Below, one piece after another: positions 4,022 through 21,818 of a stretch of DNA of 32,000 bases; positions within the stretch are counted from its first letter, which is position 1; each line of letters begins with the position of its first letter. This stretch comes from Candidatus Thorarchaeota archaeon. GTDB taxonomy: Archaea > Asgardarchaeota > Thorarchaeia > Thorarchaeales > Thorarchaeaceae. A program made the translations under genes and the position numbers. The notes below the pieces were generated by a model. That model was not told the origin of the DNA, did not search any database, and was given only the letters and a program-made list of their open reading frames with translations. Location of the stretch: contig PRDJ01000036.1 in assembly GCA_003345555.1 (NCBI GenBank), forward strand, positions 60,001-92,000, read 5' to 3'.

Positions 4022-4936
4022 TTGATGCCCAAGGCCATCTATGCAATATGGTGGGACCCCAACCTCGGTCCTTTTCTCGGCCGGTCATACCCAGAGAATG
4101 ATCCGCTGACGTCCGAAGAAGCTGTAGTCATCTTCATGGGGCATGGACTGCAACAAGAAGCGAAGGTCGGCTACACAAAGTTGGCAAAGGGGTTGGTGGT
4201 ATCTTATCTTGACAGCCCAAACTGTATCGCGGTACTACTGGATGAGAACGATGATCCCTCAGTTGTCGAAAGGAATCTGCTTAGACTCGTCGGCCGTATC
4301 AATTTCAACAGCAGCAAATGGGATGCGGAGATAACGCGTGCCTTTCTTCTGTTGCAGGAACTCATCGCAGAGACATCTGGCCAAGAGCTGCTTTCCAATC
4401 CCCACGTTACCAGACTTGTCGAAGACATGGCTACGGGTAGAGTGTCAGCCCTGGTTCCTAGGCACGTGCTAAGGGCAACTGCAAAATACCCAAAGGCTTC
4501 GGACTACTTGGGACCCGATGAGGAAGAGGTCTCAAGACTGCTTAAGGATCTAGAACGTGCAGGCCACTTGGTTCCGAAGACATATGGAAGAAGAGTTGAA
4601 TGCAGACAGTGTGGAGGCACCGAAGTCACTCTCGAACTCGCGTGCCCTTCGTGTGGGAGTAATGACATCTACAAAGTCTATCTGGTGTTCTGCCCCAAGT
4701 GCGGTAATAGGACTCAGACAGTACTCGTAGATGACTTGACCGAGGTACGGTGCCAACAATGCAAGCAGCCTGCAAAGGTGTCAGAACTGTCTGTCATAGA
4801 CGTGGAGCTGCTCTGCAAAGGGTGTGGGCAGGCGACAAACGATCCCAAAATTGTACTGTCTTGTGCGAATTGTGGAAAGCACATGACAAACACTGATCTT
4901 TTAGGCGGGACAGGGTTGGCATACTATCCGGCGTAG
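4022..4936 (+). CDS. uDENN/longin-like N-terminal domain + winged-helix-like segment + triple Zn-ribbon (TackOD1-like) protein
   Basis: N-terminus AIYAIWWDPNLGPFLGRSYPE fits the uDENN-type longin start (hydrophobic strand, D/H-P-x-x-G-P, Y/V-P). The middle has a helix plus EEEVSRLLKDLERAGHLV. The C-terminus has six CxxC pairs (CRQC, CPSC, CPKC, CQQC, CKGC, CANC) in the arrangement recalled for thaumarchaeal output domain 1. Confidence 0.7.
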   Translation: MMPKAIYAIWWDPNLGPFLGRSYPENDPLTSEEAVVIFMGHGLQQEAKVGYTKLAKGLVVSYLDSPNCIAVLLDENDDPSVVERNLLRLVGRINFNSSKWDAEITRAFLLLQELIAETSGQELLSNPHVTRLVEDMATGRVSALVPRHVLRATAKYPKASDYLGPDEEEVSRLLKDLERAGHLVPKTYGRRVECRQCGGTEVTLELACPSCGSNDIYKVYLVFCPKCGNRTQTVLVDDLTEVRCQQCKQPAKVSELSVIDVELLCKGCGQATNDPKIVLSCANCGKHMTNTDLLGGTGLAYYPA

Positions 4937-6737: not shown

Positions 6738-7631
6738 ATGACAGGACCGTTGAAAGTGCAGGAGTTCATGGTTCTGACGGTAGGAGGAATACCCCTCTTC
6801 CATTATTCACCCAATGATTCGAGAAAACTCGATACTCTGCTGTCCGGATTCCTTAGTGCCGTCTCAAGCTTCGCGGCCGAGTTTGGAGAGCGTTCAATCC
6901 AGAGCCTATCCTTTGAAGGCTCGGAGATTCTCTATCAGACAGAAGCAGATGTTCTGTTCGTATTCGTAGTTGGATCTGGTGCAGAGAAGCGCGTCTTGAG
7001 GGCTGTGCTCAGAGACCTTAGTCGCAAGTTCCTCAGTAGCTACCAAGAGGAAATCAAGGCAGACGTTCTCATCGAGGATGCATTCAAGGGCTTTGCCGAC
7101 GAGGTCAAGAGATCCTTCTCGTTCTACGAAGGCGTTCTTGCAGTGGCAGCAAGTCTTAGCTCGTTTGTTGTTCCAAAGATAAACCAGGCAACATTCGATG
7201 CGGCTGTGAGCTTGATGGGGCTTTTGGATGAGCTGCATCGTGATTTTGGTATTGGTGGCAGCAGGATTGTGGATGCAATTGATGGAAAGGCCTCCATCTA
7301 CGATGTAAGTCGAATAACCGGAATTGAGATTGATCAAGTAACAGAGGTTGTCGAGTATCTCGTCATATGGGGTGTAGTCAGGGTGTTTAAGATGTGTCCA
7401 GCAATTCAGGCAAGCGACGCCAGGTTCGACATCTACCTCGATATCGTTGGTCTTCCCAAACGAGACAATCAGATTCTAATTCGAGCAAGACCTTTCTGTA
7501 AAGGCGAGAAGTCACTGGTTGAAATAAGCGAGAAAATAGGAGTCACAGCTGAAAAGCTACACGAGATACTAGGTAAGCTTGGCAATGCCGTAAGCTGGAA
7601 CTACATTGAAGTTACAAGCCTGTCACACTGA
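6738..7631 (+). CDS. Longin domain + two winged-helix domains (NPRL2/NPR2-like C-terminal half)
   Basis: The N-terminal ~115 aa show the Asgard-type longin pattern (FMVLTVGGIPLFHY...LLSGFLSAVSSFAAEF...IQSLSFEGSEILY...LFVFVV...LRDLSRKFL). wHTH1: IVDAIDGKASIYDVSRITGIEIDQVTEVVEYLVIWGVV. wHTH2: ARPFCKGEKSLVEISEKIGVTAEKLHEIL. Confidence 0.8.
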   Translation: MTGPLKVQEFMVLTVGGIPLFHYSPNDSRKLDTLLSGFLSAVSSFAAEFGERSIQSLSFEGSEILYQTEADVLFVFVVGSGAEKRVLRAVLRDLSRKFLSSYQEEIKADVLIEDAFKGFADEVKRSFSFYEGVLAVAASLSSFVVPKINQATFDAAVSLMGLLDELHRDFGIGGSRIVDAIDGKASIYDVSRITGIEIDQVTEVVEYLVIWGVVRVFKMCPAIQASDARFDIYLDIVGLPKRDNQILIRARPFCKGEKSLVEISEKIGVTAEKLHEILGKLGNAVSWNYIEVTSLSH

Positions 7632-7737: not shown

Positions 7738-9033
7738 CTGGTCAAAGAAGTCCTCATCCTACGTGAAGGCGGAATTCCACTCTTTCATTACAGTGTTGGC
7801 GGCACAAAGAAGCTAGACGAACTCGTTGCAGCCTTCTTATCGGTCATGGGGTCTCTTGCAGAACGAGTAAGTGAACAGCAAATCAAAGTCGTATCGTTCG
7901 CCTCGAACAAGTTCGTCTGGCAACAAAAAGGCGACCTTCTATTCATAGCCCTGGTGTCGCAGGAAGACAGTGTAGAGATATACCGTGTGTTACTCCGGGA
8001 CCTTGCAGATCAGTTCGTAAGCACGTTCTACTCGGAACTGAAAAGTGGAACGAGTCAGTTCACTGTATTCAAAAGGTTCGCAGACACCGTTGAAGCTACA
8101 CTTCAAAGGTTCGATGGTATTCCGGGTCTGGCCCGACGCTACAAGATAGGCCTCCTGCCTGCTGACGATCTGAAGCGGCTAAGGATTGTCATGGCGCAAG
8201 CGGAGAGGCGTCCTGGCGTGATGAGAGGAGCAGTAATCACGCGTGACGGCTTTGTGCTTGCCTCCAACCTTAGGTCATACGAGATGGAAGCCTTGCTGGA
8301 TCTTCTGGATAGTCTGAGTTCCGCTCCTAAGTTAGCTGAAAGGAGCCTGACTCTTTCCCATACGAGCTTGGACCCGTTGACGCGCTTTTTCGTCACTAGG
8401 GCGGAGAATAACGTGTATTGTATATTCATCGTGAGTGCAGAGAAACCTGACAGCCAGCTCTTGAAGGGAGTTGAGCCTGTGCTCGCCGCTGTCGCTTCTC
8501 TTGACCAAACAAGCCTGAAAAGAGTTCTCCCCACATATCTAGCCGAGTCGACCGGATTCTACGAATATGATTTGGTCATACCGTTGATCCCTGTTGCAGA
8601 GGCGCTAGACAGCTCTAGCAGGTTTCTCGGCGGAATCGAGGACACCCTTCGAGCTAATGCTGTTACCGTCCTCAATATTGTAGACCAGAGGAACACAATC
8701 ACTGACATAGAAAGGAAGACGGGGTTTACGGCTGAGGAAACAACTGAAGTACTAGCCCATCTCGTCTCGAATGGCATTGTCAAAATAGCAAAGCTCTATC
8801 CCGTCATGGCTGAAAGGGACAGACGATTTGCGGCATTTCTTGAAGTCGCAGGAATGAATAATAGGGACTATCGCATAGTCGATGCCATCTGGCAGTATTG
8901 TACAGGAGCGTATTCGCTCAAGGAAGTGTCTGACGAAACAGAAATCCCCGCAGCTCGAATACTTGAGGTGCTCAAGTCGTTAGGCAAATACGTCAGATAT
9001 GAGACAGAAAGGGTGATGCAACACGTGCGCTGA
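7738..9033 (+). CDS. Longin + roadblock/LC7 + two winged-helix domain protein (paralog of 6738..7631), probable CTG start
   Basis: The frame is open upstream of the tracked ATG 7846 and encodes VKEVLILREGGIPLFHYSVGGTKKLDELVAAFLSV, clearly homologous to the paralog N-terminus. No in-frame ATG/GTG/TTG lies between the stops at 7687-7692 and 7846. Central roadblock motif: RPGVMRGAVITRDGFVLASN. C-terminal wHTH pair: VLNIVDQRNTITDIERKTG...LAHLVSNGIV and YCTGAYSLKEVSDETEI. Confidence 0.8.
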   Translation: MVKEVLILREGGIPLFHYSVGGTKKLDELVAAFLSVMGSLAERVSEQQIKVVSFASNKFVWQQKGDLLFIALVSQEDSVEIYRVLLRDLADQFVSTFYSELKSGTSQFTVFKRFADTVEATLQRFDGIPGLARRYKIGLLPADDLKRLRIVMAQAERRPGVMRGAVITRDGFVLASNLRSYEMEALLDLLDSLSSAPKLAERSLTLSHTSLDPLTRFFVTRAENNVYCIFIVSAEKPDSQLLKGVEPVLAAVASLDQTSLKRVLPTYLAESTGFYEYDLVIPLIPVAEALDSSSRFLGGIEDTLRANAVTVLNIVDQRNTITDIERKTGFTAEETTEVLAHLVSNGIVKIAKLYPVMAERDRRFAAFLEVAGMNNRDYRIVDAIWQYCTGAYSLKEVSDETEIPAARILEVLKSLGKYVRYETERVMQHVR

Positions 9034-9037
9034 CATA

Positions 9038-9787
9038 ACGTCGAAGATAGTGTGTATCCATAGCTTCAGGGGTGGAACTGGGAAGTCCAATATAGCAGCC
9101 AATCTTGCTGCAGTCGCTGCCCTCGATGGAAAGAGAGTTGCTGTCATAGACACCGATGTGGCGTCACCGGGAATACATGTAATCTTTGGACTAGGCAGGC
9201 AAAAACTGAAACACACACTTAATGACTACCTACGCGGAGAGTGTGATATCAAAGACGCCTGTATGGATATGACGAGCGAACTTGGTATCAGGCGAGGACA
9301 ACTGTTCTTGATTCCCAGTTCGATGAGCGCCACCGACATTACGCGTATTCTAAGAGAAGGTTTTGAGGTCAGCGATCTCAAGAACGGATTCACTGAAGTG
9401 ATCAAGGCAAAGAACCTCGATTACCTCATTATTGATACGCATCCGGGTCTTGACCGCGAGACTCTGCTGTCGATGGCCACGACAGACTTCCTGTTCGTGG
9501 TAGCCAGAATCGATGAGCAGGACCTACTCGGCACGGCAGCAACATTGAGCGTCGCCAGTAAATTGCAGGTGCCCGATACTCGAATTATCATCAACAAGAA
9601 GCCGAGCATCTACGAAGACAAGGCGATAATCGAGGAAGTTGAGCGGAAGTTCAAGACGAAGGTCGTTACAATCATCCCGATGCTGCAGATTCTCACCGAG
9701 GTTGGTAGTAGGTACATCGTCTGTTTGAAACATCCAGAGAGTGAATTCACTCAGCGGATGCAGGAGATCTACTCAGTCATCAAATAG
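9038..9787 (+). CDS. MinD/ParA-family (SIMIBI) ATPase
   Basis: Deviant Walker A SFRGGTGKS, VIDTDVASPGIH, and IIDTHPG Walker B/switch II. The track start is GTG 9050; in-frame ACG 9038 would restore the recalled family N-terminus MSKIV(S/C)IHSFRGGTGKSN. Confidence 0.92.
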   Translation, partial: TSKIVCIHSFRGGTGKSNIAANLAAVAALDGKRVAVIDTDVASPGIHVIFGLGRQKLKHTLNDYLRGECDIKDACMDMTSELGIRRGQLFLIPSSMSATDITRILREGFEVSDLKNGFTEVIKAKNLDYLIIDTHPGLDRETLLSMATTDFLFVVARIDEQDLLGTAATLSVASKLQVPDTRIIINKKPSIYEDKAIIEEVERKFKTKVVTIIPMLQILTEVGSRYIVCLKHPESEFTQRMQEIYSVIK

Positions 9788-16575: not shown

Positions 16576-18429
16576 ATGGCTAAGAAAGAAGGGAAACCCA
16601 AGAAGGAAGTGAAGAAGCCTGCTCCAGCTCCGGCAGAGGAACCGAAGCCCGCTGCTCCAGCTCCACCCAAACCGGCTCCTGCAGCTCCAGCTCCTGCTCC
16701 GAAACCAGCTCCTGCACCCGCTCCACCGAAACCAGCTGCCGCTCCGCCTAAGGAGGAGAGGCCTTGGCTCAAGAGCTATGTTGGAAAGACTCCACCGGAC
16801 ATCAAGATTCCAGATGGACCACTATACGCCGAACTTGACAAGGCTGTAGCGGAGTTTCCAAACAACGTTGCCCTCTACTACGAAGGAATCAAGATCACAT
16901 ACAAGCAACTTGGCACGTTCGTAGACAAGGCGGCGAATGGATTCGCATCAATTGGAGTCAAGAAAGGTGATACAGTCGCTATAATGCTTCCAAACTGCCC
17001 TCAGTTCGTGATATCCTACTTCGGCGCGCTCAAGTGTGGTGCCACAGTCACGCCAATCAACCCACTAAGTGTCGCAAAAGAGCTTAGGATATACTTGCAG
17101 GACACGAAAGCAAAGACAATCGTCGTTCTCAACTTCTTCTATCGTCTTGTCGAAGAAGTTCGCAAGGAATCCGACCTTGAAAACGTCATAGTCACAGCCG
17201 GTTGGGATCATCTGGGCTCAGCAAAGAGAGCTCTTGCTCCGAAAACCGTTTACAAGAAGGAAATGAAGGAAGTCCCGCCTCTTCGCAAGGGCGACCGCAA
17301 CTGGCTCGATTTTCTAGCGGCCGCCAAGCCCGAAGCACCGAAAGTCACCGTCGACCCTGCTAGGGATATCGCTGTCTACCAGTTCACAGGCGGAACCACC
17401 GGAACTCCCAAAGCAGCAATGCTGACACACAACAACCTGAAGGCGAATTGCTGCCAATGCAGTGCCTGGATGGATTGGATTGCCACAAGAGGCAAAGAAA
17501 TCATGGTCGCGGCACTTCCCTTGCAGCATATCTTCGGACAGACCGTGTCCATGAACCTTGCCATAGCATGGGCGAGCGGGATAATCCTGATACCCAATCC
17601 GCGTGACGTCAAGCATCTGCTATCTGAGATTGACAGCATCAAGCCAACCTTCTTCCCCATAGTGGCTACTATGGCAATTTCGGTCTATAGTCATCCTGAG
17701 GTGAAGAAGTACAAGCTGACCTCATTGAAGCTGGCAATCGCAGGTGCCATGGCGTTACCTGCCGAAGTCACTAAGCGGTTCGAGGATGCAACCAACGCTA
17801 TTATCATCGAAGGGTATGGTCTCACTGAGGCTTCGCCAGTTACTCATGCGAACCCCTTGGACAAGAGTCTCAGGAAGATTGGCTCGATTGGACTGCCGTT
17901 CCCAAGCACCTACAGCAGGATAGTGGACCTTGAGAACTCATCCAAGGTTCTAGGACCTGACGAAATCGGTGAACTCTCCGTCAAGGGTCCTCAAGTCATG
18001 CTTGGCTATCACAACCGACCCGATGAGACCTCAGCCGTATTGTCTAGAGACGGTTGGCTGCTCACAGGTGACATAGCTAAGATGGACAAGGACGGATGGA
18101 CATACATAGTCGACCGCAAGAAGGATTTGATCAATGCCGCTGGCTACAAGGTCTGGCCAAGGGATGTAGAAGAAATCCTATTCGAGCATCCCGCGGTCAA
18201 GGAGGCTGCTGTCATTGGCGTTCCTGACAAGGTTCGCGGCGAGACTGTGAAGGCGTTCATCATTCTCCAACCCGGCAAGACTGCGACGGAGGAAGACATC
18301 CGCAAGTTCTGCAAAGAGAAGATGGCCATCTACAAGGTTCCAACAACAGTTGAATTCGTCGATTCCTTGCCAAAGACCATGGTAGGAAAGGTCTTGCGCA
18401 GAGAACTGCGAGAGAAGACTCAGACATAG
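16576..18429 (+). CDS. fadD: Long-chain fatty acid--CoA ligase (LcfA/FadD-like) with Lys/Pro/Ala-rich N-terminal extension
   Basis: ANL motifs YQFTGGTTGTPKAAMLTH, EGYGLTEASPVTH, GELSVKGPQVMLGY, WLLTGDIA, DRKKDLI...GYKVWPRDVEE, LPKTMVGKVLRRELR. The substrate range is inferred from the family. Confidence 0.9.
   Translation: MAKKEGKPKKEVKKPAPAPAEEPKPAAPAPPKPAPAAPAPAPKPAPAPAPPKPAAAPPKEERPWLKSYVGKTPPDIKIPDGPLYAELDKAVAEFPNNVALYYEGIKITYKQLGTFVDKAANGFASIGVKKGDTVAIMLPNCPQFVISYFGALKCGATVTPINPLSVAKELRIYLQDTKAKTIVVLNFFYRLVEEVRKESDLENVIVTAGWDHLGSAKRALAPKTVYKKEMKEVPPLRKGDRNWLDFLAAAKPEAPKVTVDPARDIAVYQFTGGTTGTPKAAMLTHNNLKANCCQCSAWMDWIATRGKEIMVAALPLQHIFGQTVSMNLAIAWASGIILIPNPRDVKHLLSEIDSIKPTFFPIVATMAISVYSHPEVKKYKLTSLKLAIAGAMALPAEVTKRFEDATNAIIIEGYGLTEASPVTHANPLDKSLRKIGSIGLPFPSTYSRIVDLENSSKVLGPDEIGELSVKGPQVMLGYHNRPDETSAVLSRDGWLLTGDIAKMDKDGWTYIVDRKKDLINAAGYKVWPRDVEEILFEHPAVKEAAVIGVPDKVRGETVKAFIILQPGKTATEEDIRKFCKEKMAIYKVPTTVEFVDSLPKTMVGKVLRRELREKTQT
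16615..16749 (+). repeat. Imperfect in-frame low-complexity repeat (GCTCCA/GCTCCT units) encoding (K)PAPAP/PAAPAP
   Basis: Repeated gctccagctcc, aaaccggctcct and aaaccagctcct units at 16615-16749. Confidence 0.85.
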
Positions 18430-18657: not shown

Positions 18658-19218
18658 CTATCTGTCAGGATGGAGGATATCAGTTCGGAGGTTCCGTATC
18701 AGGCAGTGTATCTCAGGTCGGCCCAGCATCTTACGGCGTGCTTCAGACATATTGTTAATGACACACGCAACCCCCACTACGCTAGCGCCGAGCTTCTGCA
18801 CGACCCTCGCAACAGCAAATACAGTCGTCCCCTGAATAAGCCAATCATCTACGATAGCAACTCTGTCCCCGGGTGAGATGGAGTCTGAGACCAGCGCGAG
18901 TCTTCTGTCAGCGAATCTATCTGAAGGTAGAAATTCCACAGGTCTACTATAATCATCAGGTAGGTAAGCAATCGAACGAGCTGGAACGATTCCGCAGCCA
19001 AGGTAGTAAGCAATTGCACTTCCCAAGGCCAATCCTCTTTGTTCAATACCGATTATCTTGTTTGGTTTGAGCTCCACGATTGGTTTGGCTAGGGCCATGA
19101 CAGCTTCGTGGAAGATTCTTGGATTCTCTAGCAGCCTGCTTATGTCACAGACAGCTTTGCCGGGTGATGGCCAGTCCTTGATTACCTCGACGTAGTCTCT
19201 GAAATCAATCTCTGCCAA
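18658..19218 (-). CDS. apt: Adenine phosphoribosyltransferase-like type I PRTase
   Basis: IKDWPSPGKAVCDISRLL (cf. IPDFPKPGILFxDITxLL), IIGIEQRGLALG, PRPP loop RVAIVDDWLIQGTT, GASVVGVACVI. The PRPP loop is divergent. Confidence 0.75.
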   Translation of the reverse strand: MAEIDFRDYVEVIKDWPSPGKAVCDISRLLENPRIFHEAVMALAKPIVELKPNKIIGIEQRGLALGSAIAYYLGCGIVPARSIAYLPDDYSRPVEFLPSDRFADRRLALVSDSISPGDRVAIVDDWLIQGTTVFAVARVVQKLGASVVGVACVINNMSEARRKMLGRPEIHCLIRNLRTDILHPDR

Positions 19219-19403
19219 ATCGCCAACCTCTCACTCTATCTTCGAAAGTAAGCCGGCTCCTGAGATACGATACGGGTACAAAAACGTTCGCAACGTCCTT
19301 TGGGAGCTCAGCGAAATGGTTATCACACGTCACCGGTATTCTTCGATTGAAACTAGTTCAGTAAGAGGCGGCAAACCTGATAGTACCTGGGACAACTGTT
19401 GCA

Positions 19404-20636
19404 GTGACTCTCTTGCCGGGTTACGTCGAGGTCCGTGATAAGGGCATTCTAAGAAAGAAGATACCGACAAGCAACAGATCATTTGAAAACGTGTGCTCCG
19501 ATCTTGAGCGCTTCTTCAAGGACGCAGGAAAGAAGCTGCCGCCCGGCGTTGTAAGAGAAGCTCTACAGAGAATAGGTGTTCCTCAGGTTAAGATGATAAT
19601 CTCACAGGCGGAGCCACTAGAAGAATCACAAGCAAAGGTTGTCAAGGAGATTTCAGCCTCGGTTGAGGCTAGGAAGAAATCAAAGAGAAAGCCGAAGGTA
19701 GCCAAGAGTACAAGTAAGACAGAGGAAGTTCCTGAAGCGGCCAAGAAAGAACCAGCAGGTGACATATCTGGCATTGAGTATCACGACGTTGAAGAAGCTT
19801 TGAGCGTAGTGGAATCCCTGAGTGATTCGTTTCTCTCATCCAAGTCCAAGGATGCATCCCGTGCAACTCCTGACAAGGGTAAAATCAGTATCGAAGTCGA
19901 GGGAACCGAAGAGATAGTCGGTGCTCCCCGCTTGCGGGCGGCCATGCCAGAACAAGTGCCGCATGCGATCAAGGCCACTGCTGAACAGTTTCCGCCCTCA
20001 CCGACGGAGTCCGGCAGACCCAAGGAGGCGGCTCAGTCTCCCACACGCATACCCAAGACGCAGGTGATTGCAAAGGCCCTGATTCTGGGGGAAGAAGGCG
20101 TAGGCAAGTCATCATTGATAGCAAAGGGAGGCCTCAAGCCGCTCGAGTCAAGCCCTGAGGCAGAGAAGAGACCGTATGTCACGGAGAAAGTGATTGAGGT
20201 TGACAACTACAGAGTCAGGCTGCAGGCATGGCTATTTGACGCAGCTTCGGCCTCAAGAGTGACAAGAAAGGCGTTCTATGAAGATACTGGTCTCGTCATC
20301 ATTGTGTATAGCACATCAGACCGTTGGTCATTCGAGAGCATTGATTTCTGGCTCAAGGAGAGCATATCGGCCTCTGGGATACGACCTCCTGTGGTTATCG
20401 TCGGGAACAAGACCGACGTTCGAGCCAACTCACCCCTCGTGGACAGGGAGCCTCCGGTATCACCAGAAGAGGGATTGAAGTTGGCACATGAAATAGCCTC
20501 GAAGCTCGCATCGGGGCAGAAGACTCATCCAGTAGCCTTCATTGAGACCTCGTGCCTCACTGGCCAAGGTGTTGAGGACCTGTTTAGGATGGCTGCAGAG
20601 CTTTTCGTCAAGTCAATCAATCGACCGAAAGCATAG
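19404..20636 (+). CDS. Rab/Ras-like small GTPase domain with degenerate switch motifs and ~215-aa N-terminal extension
   Basis: G1 GEEGVGKS, G4 VIVGNKTD and G5 FIETSCLTG are present. G3 reads AWLFDAAS instead of WDTAG. Rab-like spacing includes IIVYSTSDRWSFESIDFWLKE. The N-terminal half is mostly K/E/S/P/A-rich. Confidence 0.85.
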   Translation: MTLLPGYVEVRDKGILRKKIPTSNRSFENVCSDLERFFKDAGKKLPPGVVREALQRIGVPQVKMIISQAEPLEESQAKVVKEISASVEARKKSKRKPKVAKSTSKTEEVPEAAKKEPAGDISGIEYHDVEEALSVVESLSDSFLSSKSKDASRATPDKGKISIEVEGTEEIVGAPRLRAAMPEQVPHAIKATAEQFPPSPTESGRPKEAAQSPTRIPKTQVIAKALILGEEGVGKSSLIAKGGLKPLESSPEAEKRPYVTEKVIEVDNYRVRLQAWLFDAASASRVTRKAFYEDTGLVIIVYSTSDRWSFESIDFWLKESISASGIRPPVVIVGNKTDVRANSPLVDREPPVSPEEGLKLAHEIASKLASGQKTHPVAFIETSCLTGQGVEDLFRMAAELFVKSINRPKA

Positions 20637-20771: not shown

Positions 20772-21161
20772 TTGACTGGGAAGAGTAAAATAGGCGCTGG
20801 TCTCTCACCCGAATTGGCGGGCATAGCATATACGAGTGGAATGGTGATTACGACGCCGGACTTGTGCGAGAGTTGCGGACAAGAGATAGCACCATTCAAA
20901 CCAGCCAAGACTCTCGATGAGAGTTACTCGAATGACGAACAAAAGAGACTGAGCATATGTGAGGATTGCTTCAAGAAGCGGTTCAAAGTGACGACCAAGA
21001 GGAGTAGTGGCTATGGAGGCACAATCTATGACCTGGAAGAAAGACCTGCCCCCCGTTTTGGCATCGGCAGCAAGAAGCTCAGTTGCCTGAAATGCACGTG
21101 GGTTGCATGGACTGAGGAGGGCCTTGCCGTTCACATGAACAGGAGACATAAACCACAGTGA
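20772..21161 (+). CDS. Zn-binding protein with a CxxC...CxxC pair and a C-terminal C2H2 finger
   Basis: CESC-x27-CEDC, then CLKC-x12-H-x4-H (CLKCTWVAWTEEGLAVHMNRRH). Start is TTG 20772 or ATG 20840. Confidence 0.75.
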   Translation: MTGKSKIGAGLSPELAGIAYTSGMVITTPDLCESCGQEIAPFKPAKTLDESYSNDEQKRLSICEDCFKKRFKVTTKRSSGYGGTIYDLEERPAPRFGIGSKKLSCLKCTWVAWTEEGLAVHMNRRHKPQ

Positions 21162-21173
21162 TGGAGTCCTTGC

Positions 21174-21818
21174 TCAACTGCCTACGGCTGCCTGACTCTT
21201 CTCTTTGACAATTTCATGACCCGATAGGCCCACTCCTCTGACTCTGGAAGCCGCGGTCTCAAGCATGCCAATCCTGTAGGTTGTCGTCCGTGGACCGAGA
21301 CCCTGAAGCCATTCAAGCCCGGCCAGATCCAAACGGTTGTTGTGCAGAAAGTAAACCTTCAAGTCAGAGACCAAAGCCGCGCGCCTGTCAAAGAAACCGA
21401 CAATGATTCCAATAGTTGGTGCTGCGAAGGCAACCATCACCCATATGGCGGCCAACGGGTCGCTATTGAAGTACTCGTAGAAGAACAAGTACCCTGAGAT
21501 GACGGGCTGTACAAGAGCTAGCAGGACCAAGAGCAGAGCCACGTGTTGGGTCGCATCGTCGCTCCCGAGCCCCGACAGCCCGATTACATCTTGATTTGGC
21601 GTAACAAGATACACGAGCACTGCTCCAGAGGAGATACCCACCACGAGCGCCGAGGCAGCAATCAACATGAGATATGTAATCGGTGACTCAGTCCACACAT
21701 CGGGAAATCCTATGGAGGCCTGGATCAACAGTGACACACCGATAATTGCAGCACCAACGGCAAACCCTCTCCAACTGAAGAACTCGTATCGTTCCCCATG
21801 GAGAACTCCCTCAGACAT
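21174..21818 (-). CDS. Hypothetical membrane protein (four TM segments plus soluble C-terminal domain)
   Basis: Four hydrophobic helices and a ~75-aa hydrophilic tail. ATG start with GGAAGG RBS. Confidence 0.75.
   Translation of the reverse strand: MSEGVLHGERYEFFSWRGFAVGAAIIGVSLLIQASIGFPDVWTESPITYLMLIAASALVVGISSGAVLVYLVTPNQDVIGLSGLGSDDATQHVALLLVLLALVQPVISGYLFFYEYFNSDPLAAIWVMVAFAAPTIGIIVGFFDRRAALVSDLKVYFLHNNRLDLAGLEWLQGLGPRTTTYRIGMLETAASRVRGVGLSGHEIVKEKSQAAVGS

Follow-up and report, generated by a model that had tools for sequence, protein, structure and literature searches.

The window, a stretch of 32,000 nucleotides of genomic DNA from a Thorarchaeote (Candidatus Thorarchaeota archaeon), encodes a Rab-like domain that has lost its switch residues and is conserved under selection across the class Thorarchaeia. 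We judge it fairly likely that this protein is a Thorarchaeia-specific pseudo-GTPase that serves as a non-hydrolysing and non-switching adaptor, with two binding modules on a tether, and that it probably still holds guanine nucleotide. The family is apparently an undescribed archaeal pseudo-GTPase family with an architecture of its own, confined to one class. Pseudo-GTPases have been described almost wholly from eukaryotes (PMC5593906). No paper was found when the literature was searched for pseudo-GTPases together with Asgard archaea, and no description of this family or of any Asgard pseudo-GTPase was found in the literature searched, a body of work outside which most subscription papers fall.

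The open reading frame at 19404-20636 (+), of 410 amino acids from a GTG at 19404, was present as originally reported, and the residue numbers used here (E254, D279, W308 etc.) are positions on this frame. The conserved first strand of the homologues is encoded in the window upstream of this GTG, and the codon homologous to the start was found to be of start type in 29 of 29 loci (CTG 11, TTG 9, ATG 6, GTG 3), in two of them directly after a stop codon. Based on the first strand and the start-type codons, the true start is probably the CTG at 19377, where the profile match also begins, which gives a whole gene at 19377-20636 (+) and a protein of 419 amino acids. A Shine-Dalgarno-like AGAGG (19364-19368, +), 8 nt before the CTG, may function as such, and GGAG-like motifs are found at similar spacing before the start in most orthologues. 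No other codon serves as the start of this gene as often as CTG (11 of 29 loci), with the result that standard gene calls cut it short, and Thorarchaeia may use CTG starts frequently. Three short contigs of one wetland metatranscriptome (99% identical) fall inside the gene, although such contigs cannot show transcription, and independent DNA contigs displayed no differences from it.

The G domain, with a conserved lead-in motif, occupies 20037-20621 (+) and is predicted to adopt a Rab/Ras fold. Residues 224-399 match the Pfam models Ras (PF00071; E 9e-18, 64.8 bits compared to a cut-off of 21.6) and Roc, and the best PDB sequence matches are Rabs (E about 1e-11). By structure comparison, the modelled domain aligned with Thor-Rab (7EZB) at Z 21.9 and an rmsd of 2.1 Å over 160 residues with 25% identity, tied with Rab, Rho and Ras structures (Z about 21-22). 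A Roco (Roc-COR) identity was rejected despite the Roc match, as the protein ends after the G domain with no COR, and a DLIC identity was rejected at a Pfam E of 0.068, below the cut-off.

The register of the G motifs was taken from alignments in which the protein was compared to Ypt6, Rab14 and 15 canonical Thorarchaeal Rabs; these required no gaps, including over the stretch from the G3 Trp to the switch II Tyr. Motif statistics were derived from the 120 best of 198 homologues (E 0.001 or better), these 120 being full-length or nearly so. By the alignments, the G2 Thr site is occupied by Glu254, and the Asp, Gly and catalytic Gln of G3 are replaced by Leu277, Ala280 and Ala281, respectively, consistent with the original prediction of WLFDAASA in place of WDTAGQE and of no switch I Thr at the usual site. 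The Asp of WLFD lies two residues out of register with the canonical G3 Asp, and the Thr of PYVTEK is a β2 residue, not G2. The original prediction was to be abandoned if orthologues kept WDTAG; DxxG was found in 0 of the 120 best homologues, which also have no conserved G2 Thr, and the degeneracy is thus conserved. Instead, the rebuilt G3 (WLFDAAS, 20229-20249, +) retains its Trp in register, has the Asp, Gly and Gln replaced and gains invariant F278, D279 and A281, following the pattern W-[S/C/L]-F-D-x-A throughout the 120 sequences; residues 278-283 are modelled as a helix (pLDDT about 97).

The P-loop GEEGVGKS (20088-20111, +) was correctly described as intact for the present copy; in this it is an exception within the family, where the Mg-binding Ser/Thr of G1 is lost in 110 of the 120 best homologues and the P-loop Lys is followed by R in 34, E in 23, G in 15, H in 12, K in 12, S in 10, Q in 10 and A in 4. 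The switch I region (20130-20174, +) varies in length and has no conserved residue, both the G2 Thr and the guanine-stacking Phe being lost, whereas the switch I Thr, Gly and Phe are each present in 15 of 15 canonical Thorarchaeal Rabs. Altogether, the family lost residues from G1 (Ser/Thr), switch I (Phe), G2 (Thr and the Gly after it), the interswitch (Phe) and G3 (Asp/Gly/Gln), each of which is found in 14-15 of the 15 canonical Rabs. It retained the Gly and Lys of the P-loop, two hydrophobic-triad residues (Trp and Tyr), NKxD and G5; the main clade shows no variation in G1 Gly/Val/Gly/Lys, G4 or G5. G4 (NKTD, 20406-20417, +) was intact as reported, with N in 100%, K in 99% and D in 100% of the 120 best homologues, as was G5 (ETSC, 20544-20555), which closes a segment that begins with a family-specific HPVAF strand (20526-20555, +) and in which the G5 Ala is replaced by Cys in 84% of the family. 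Helix α3 (20319-20360, +) carries W308, S312 and F315 on one face, each at 100% in the family compared to under 30% in canonical Rabs. Helix α3 borders switch II in the Ras fold. This position, the invariant face and the predicted G3 helix suggest, by analogy with other Ras-fold proteins, that these residues pack on switch II and fix it against α3. Family proteins end within about 5-10 residues after the last helix; the present protein has no C-terminal Cys, and a Cys within the last five residues was detected in 1 of the 120 best homologues.

The family was found to be nearly universal in its class and restricted to it. Among the 120 best homologues, those named are almost all from Thorarchaeota. 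With a G-domain profile, 79 of 87 Thorarchaeia genomes were found to have members (E 1e-54 or better), compared to none of 313 other Asgard genomes, the latter scoring no better than 5.6e-33; the next hits, from 1e-35, were ordinary Rabs where examined. Five genomes apparently devoid of the gene were checked, including the 97%-complete G025, and since the flanking zinc-finger and APRT-like genes were missing from these as well, such cases probably reflect assembly gaps and the absence is uninformative. Besides its one copy, the source genome encodes about ten further small GTPases, the majority of which have intact motifs. Open frames of about 400-500 amino acids are maintained throughout the family, and the same replacement G3 motif is found in all genera. 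Median Nei-Gojobori dN/dS, from 19 within-genus pairs that are not mutually independent, was 0.075 in the N-terminal domain and 0.081 in the G domain, with the linker at 0.26. These values bear out the description of a conserved, non-decaying Rab-like domain devoid of switch residues. In a phylogenetic tree, clades A and B and the sequence from G001 (the sole genome of a second Thorarchaeia family) were separated from canonical Rabs by a branch with 100/99 support; the tree is midpoint-rooted with a long branch for G001 and does not fix the order of motif losses or the parent Rab group.

The N-terminus is formed by a basic domain of three strands and two helices (19377-19586, +), modelled with a pLDDT of 92.8 and found only in Thorarchaeia. 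This agrees with the earlier description of a folded start, although the domain spans about 70 residues rather than about 55; its net charge is +6. Its profile matched 77 of 87 class genomes compared to 0 of 313 other Asgard genomes, and against 1.84 billion representatives it retrieved 49 proteins, 44 of which match along the domain and five of which are weak, multi-stretch and spurious-looking. No named family was found in Pfam or NCBIfam, and the suggested fold search, by Foldseek against the PDB, gave no match at E 0.001. In a wider structure comparison, several eukaryotic ribosomal chains of eL28-like size (the family name being our reading) ranked high, the best at Z 5.3 and an rmsd of 3.3 Å over 69 aligned residues, which is under the usual chance best Z of 7-8. 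An Atlas shape search gave a best TM of 0.67, to bacterial proteins without a name, and an Atlas feature search was blank. The missing matches are no proof of a new fold. An eL28/Mak16 identity found no support in sequence: no aligned member matches PF01778, and none of the class genomes scores above its cut-off. A stand-alone protein of 76 amino acids, present in 20 class genomes including the source genome (contig C41, 18606-18833), is homologous to the domain (HHalign probability 97%, E 8e-11). The stand-alone protein is basic, is usually encoded between a universal-stress-like gene and a convergent glycyl-tRNA-synthetase-like gene, and was not found in the large genera g9, g11, g12 and g16.

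Between the two domains, the Lys/Glu/Ser/Pro-rich linker had been described as disordered, and this was found to be true of most of its length: it is 46% K/E/S/P and mostly modelled at low confidence, and its first part (19587-19778, +) is of low complexity, poorly conserved and variable in length, with pLDDT under 50. The linker also includes two conserved elements that the description had passed over. An acidic amphipathic helix at residues 126-144 (19779-19835, +; predicted helix 129-144, pLDDT 71-79) has A132, L133, V136, E137, S140, D141 and F143 invariant in 120 sequences and is also present in paralogues and in proteins devoid of a G domain. A second short motif follows at residues 161-173 (19884-19922, +), with I163 at 94%, G167 at 99% and A173 at 90%.

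Relatives of the main clade carry the losses further. The paralogous clade B has the same architecture, sometimes in tandem pairs, and its members have lost the P-loop Lys in 11 of 15 rows, with G3 drifted further, and retained NKxD in 12 of 13 aligned rows. G001 has likewise lost the P-loop Lys, and D279 is kept neither in clade B nor in G001. Because Lys-less clade B and G001 proteins keep the fold and mostly NKxD, their sequences indicate that the function would need no phosphate chemistry. In genus g12, proteins of 130-215 amino acids consist of the N-terminal domain, the helix and the linker motifs with no G domain (L062:3471-4118, L063:1152-1631, L065:3353-3826, L066:2100-2579 and L067:3776-4270); thus, the N-terminal module can exist alone. 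These genes adjoin a gene for a membrane-like protein of 190 amino acids. Tandem clade-B pairs devoid of the P-loop Lys (L021:4211-6881, L022:3583-6261 and L031:4233-6875) are possible heterodimers by analogy to Rag pairs. Clade-B genes face a divergent LRR gene in 9 loci, coding for 207-216 amino acids (L021:3369-4001, L022, L024, L029, L030, L034, L035, L061 and L068) and often followed by a gene for a 700-1070-aa protein with a signal-like N-terminus; an LRR beside a Roc-like domain recalls Roco proteins.

We also examined the neighbours of the gene. The next gene on the same strand, in 31 of 31 loci, encodes a double zinc-finger protein (20841-21161, +; 106 amino acids from ATG), which we consider a candidate partner. 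This gene, the tightest of the neighbours, is single-copy and adjacent in 69 of 70 genomes and confined to family f1; no other Asgard genome has it. It does not flank clade B, and it went undetected in G001, a 96%-complete genome in which the pseudo-GTPase family is present. A complex prediction for the G domain and the zinc-finger protein, with the N-terminal module left out, scored 0.01 compared to a mark of 0.32 and speaks neither for nor against binding. As regards co-transcription of the two genes, the gap to the first Cys codon of the zinc-finger gene is 22-347 nt, and by an uncontrolled count just 2 of 31 loci have a run of at least five T there. A convergent membrane-protein gene (21174-21818, -) is conserved in 31 of 31 loci, and a divergent APRT-like phosphoribosyltransferase gene (18658-19218, -; Pfam PF00156, E 8e-13) in 30 of 31. 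Clade B and G001 have neighbours different from those of the main clade. Gene order is conserved across the whole region, which weakens any argument from neighbours.

A partnership with the longin/roadblock proteins encoded upstream, which the original prediction had offered as possible, found no support. Of 20 regions fetched, 13 have longin genes in the 20 kb upstream, no more than have the unrelated intervening metabolic genes (11-15 of 20). This interval has no longin genes in G010, G058, G073, G074 and G001, and the longin/roadblock genes are missing from it in both single-contig genomes. Within the window, three longin/roadblock-like genes and a MinD/ParA-type ATPase gene are found at 4022-4936, 6738-7631, 7846-9033 and 9050-9787; two of the three carry winged-helix or zinc-ribbon parts, and the cluster stays together in 13 of the regions fetched. 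Just left of the window on the source contig (C36, 57708-59072), a canonical Rab-like GTPase gene is followed by a longin-like gene, and this Rab is a more obvious client of the longin proteins than is the pseudo-GTPase.

One of the nearest comparisons among known systems is an active archaeal Rab. Thor-Rab (KXH73347.1; PDB 7EZB, 7EZD, 7EZE) binds GDP/Mg2+ and hydrolyses GTP, with no C-terminal CaaX/Cys (PMC10933270). The family resembles Thor-Rab and Asgard RasL in fold, G1 Gly-Lys, G4, G5, the hydrophobic-triad Trp and Tyr and the missing C-terminal Cys; unlike Thor-Rab, it has no G2, no G3 Asp/Gly/Gln, no Phe in switch I and, in most members, no G1 Ser/Thr, and its N-terminus is extended by 220 amino acids. 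By motif content it is not a canonical Rab/RasL, as the G2 Thr and the G3 DxxG and Gln are missing and G4 and G5 are present. The prenylated C-terminal Cys of eukaryotic Rabs is also missing, and the earlier report of no CaaX/CC motif was accurate but uninformative, since Thor-Rab has none either. The α3 and pre-G4 signature residues are shared with one canonical Thorarchaeal Rab group. Loci L025, L026 and L036-L040 encode a canonical-motif Thorarchaeal Rab group that has the shared α3 signature and a C-terminal extension of 160-220 amino acids.

Pseudo-GTPases are defined by loss of G motifs and are thought to be scaffolds (PMC5593906), and the family fits the sequence definition through motif loss combined with conservation under selection. 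It is like known pseudo-GTPases in having a GTPase fold with G motifs missing, in being conserved and in probably providing a binding platform; one of these, AAGAB, binds its partner away from the switches (PMC12490416). In known non-binding pseudo-GTPases both G4 and G5 are degraded (PMC5593906, PMC12490416), and this degradation in class i contrasts with the invariant G4/G5 of the Thorarchaeal family. For the present copy, class ii is favoured by the sequence, and for clade B either class i or class ii. Mg-GTP stays bound in Rnd proteins, something that most family members, judged by their residues, should not manage. The likeness to RGK proteins noted in the original prediction stands as an analogy. 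The family and RGK (Rem, Rem2, Rad, Gem) share a missing G2 Thr, an altered G3, intact G4/G5 and a long N-terminal extension, and REM2 and REM1 tie with the best structural matches of the G domain (Z about 21). In RGK proteins, the Asp of G3 (DxWE-type) and the Ser/Thr of G1 are still present, and a basic calmodulin-binding extension follows at the C-terminus. By contrast, the Thorarchaeal family has Leu/Ser/Cys at the G3 Asp site and no basic C-terminal extension, and by its sequence is not RGK. There is no sign of orthology with known pseudo-GTPases, and the origin from archaeal RasL is independent. Divergent taxon-specific Asgard Ras-superfamily groups are left undefined in the portion consulted of Vargova et al. 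(10.1101/2024.02.28.582541), where no such group is defined or called a pseudo-GTPase and Rup3 is Heimdallarchaeia-specific; the family accessions were not found in the part of its supplement that was covered.

We propose that the family arose when a canonical RasL (Rab-like) gene of Asgard archaea was duplicated and its copy placed behind a small basic domain, at a time when the sampled Thorarchaeia had not yet diverged, and that the copy then lost its Mg2+ and γ-phosphate machinery, i.e., the G2 Thr, the G3 Asp/Gly/Gln and in most members the G1 Ser/Thr. Because these residues are lost, the protein would neither hydrolyse GTP nor change shape with its nucleotide: switch I would become a free loop and switch II a helix whose surface is fixed by the new invariant α3 residues. 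With the guanine pocket (G4, G5) preserved, the domain probably still carries a guanine nucleotide as a structural cofactor, GDP being more likely than Mg-GTP. The N-terminal domain and the acidic helix may act as a second binding module on a flexible tether, and with two such modules the protein would bridge two partners. Against the adaptor reading, the present copy keeps GKS, and the invariant D279, two residues past the canonical G3 Asp, could be a migrated ligand for Mg2+ or catalysis; migrated residues are known in pseudoenzymes (PMC10211241). The zinc-finger protein as its partner is further questioned by the missing gene in G001 and the different flanks of clade B.

The protein might instead be an atypical GTPase that is still active or still switching, like the RGK proteins, which show slow hydrolysis despite degraded motifs (class iii; PMC5593906). 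Phosphate binding and slow turnover would be restored by D279 and E230, together with the basic residue that often takes the place of the G1 Ser/Thr, or by a partner in trans. The invariance of G1 Gly/Val/Gly/Lys, G4, G5, D279 and E230 in the main clade is consistent with this, as is the Arg or Lys that follows the P-loop Lys in 46 of the 120 best homologues, but that position tolerates eight different residues, switch I is variable in length and without conserved residues, clade B and G001 do not keep D279, and most of clade B has no P-loop Lys; we regard such activity as quite unlikely. A Mg2+-independent sensor, in which partner binding is controlled by whether GDP, GMP or a guanine-based signal occupies the pocket, would explain why NKxD survives (12 of 13 clade-B rows) where phosphate ligands are gone, fits with the degraded G4/G5 of known non-binding pseudo-GTPases, and could link the APRT-like neighbour (30 of 31 loci) to purine status. 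G4 and G5 residues also have structural roles. Their retention could be explained by these roles, the guanine-stacking switch I Phe is lost, and the APRT link is unspecific because gene order is conserved over the whole region, with other neighbours at clade B and G001; a sensor thus appears unlikely.

Loss of the G1 Ser/Thr or the G3 Asp produces Ras mutants that trap GEFs. The protein might, by mimicking such mutants (Ras S17N or D57), be a natural dominant-negative Rab that titrates longin/roadblock exchange factors, longin genes being present within 20 kb upstream in 13 of 20 regions. This reading, which is the partner idea of the original prediction in its strongest version, is very unlikely, as the GEF-contacted switch I and the interswitch Phe are not conserved, the longin linkage is no commoner than that of the intervening metabolic genes and is missing in the five genomes named above, and the canonical Rab just left of the window has a longin-like neighbour of its own. 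Motif loss is all that would suggest a decaying copy or a sequencing artefact, an explanation that is scarcely credible in light of the long open frames and the identical independent DNA contigs, and decay is excluded by a dN/dS of about 0.08 and the same replacement motif across homologues. The non-switching adaptor is the reading we retain. We extend it only tentatively, and with more doubt than conviction, to an archaeal pseudo-GTPase system in which a Rab-like switch was independently made into a tethered, Mg2+-independent scaffold that holds or senses nucleotide, built on a new small domain that also exists alone, with stepwise diversification (through the loss of G2/G3, the G1 Ser/Thr, the P-loop Lys and in the end the whole G domain) and with different partners (zinc-finger in the main clade, LRR in clade B).

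Asgard archaea are the closest microbial relatives of eukaryotes. A near-universal and strongly conserved Thorarchaeal family of this kind suggests that Rab-like domains were reused as non-switching platforms in Asgard archaea too and, if true, would represent a eukaryote-style recycling of GTPases into scaffolds in a prokaryote. Confinement to one class points to parallel invention, not to an ancestor of eukaryotic pseudo-GTPases. The family also offers a natural series of motif losses for asking which G motifs nucleotide binding needs. Members are labelled 'Rab family GTPase' in databases, which somewhat inflates the number of Rab switches counted in Asgard archaea.

Three further observations were made in the source genome. 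A 780-aa open frame (C68:9983-12322) ends in a canonical Rab domain. A small GTPase at C12:2787-3404, in which no W/F/Y/L-DxxG was matched, lies on a long branch. Within the window, an acyl-CoA ligase has a Pro/Ala/Lys-rich N-terminal extension of 60 amino acids (16576-16770) that is not present in the orthologues listed (about 556 aa).
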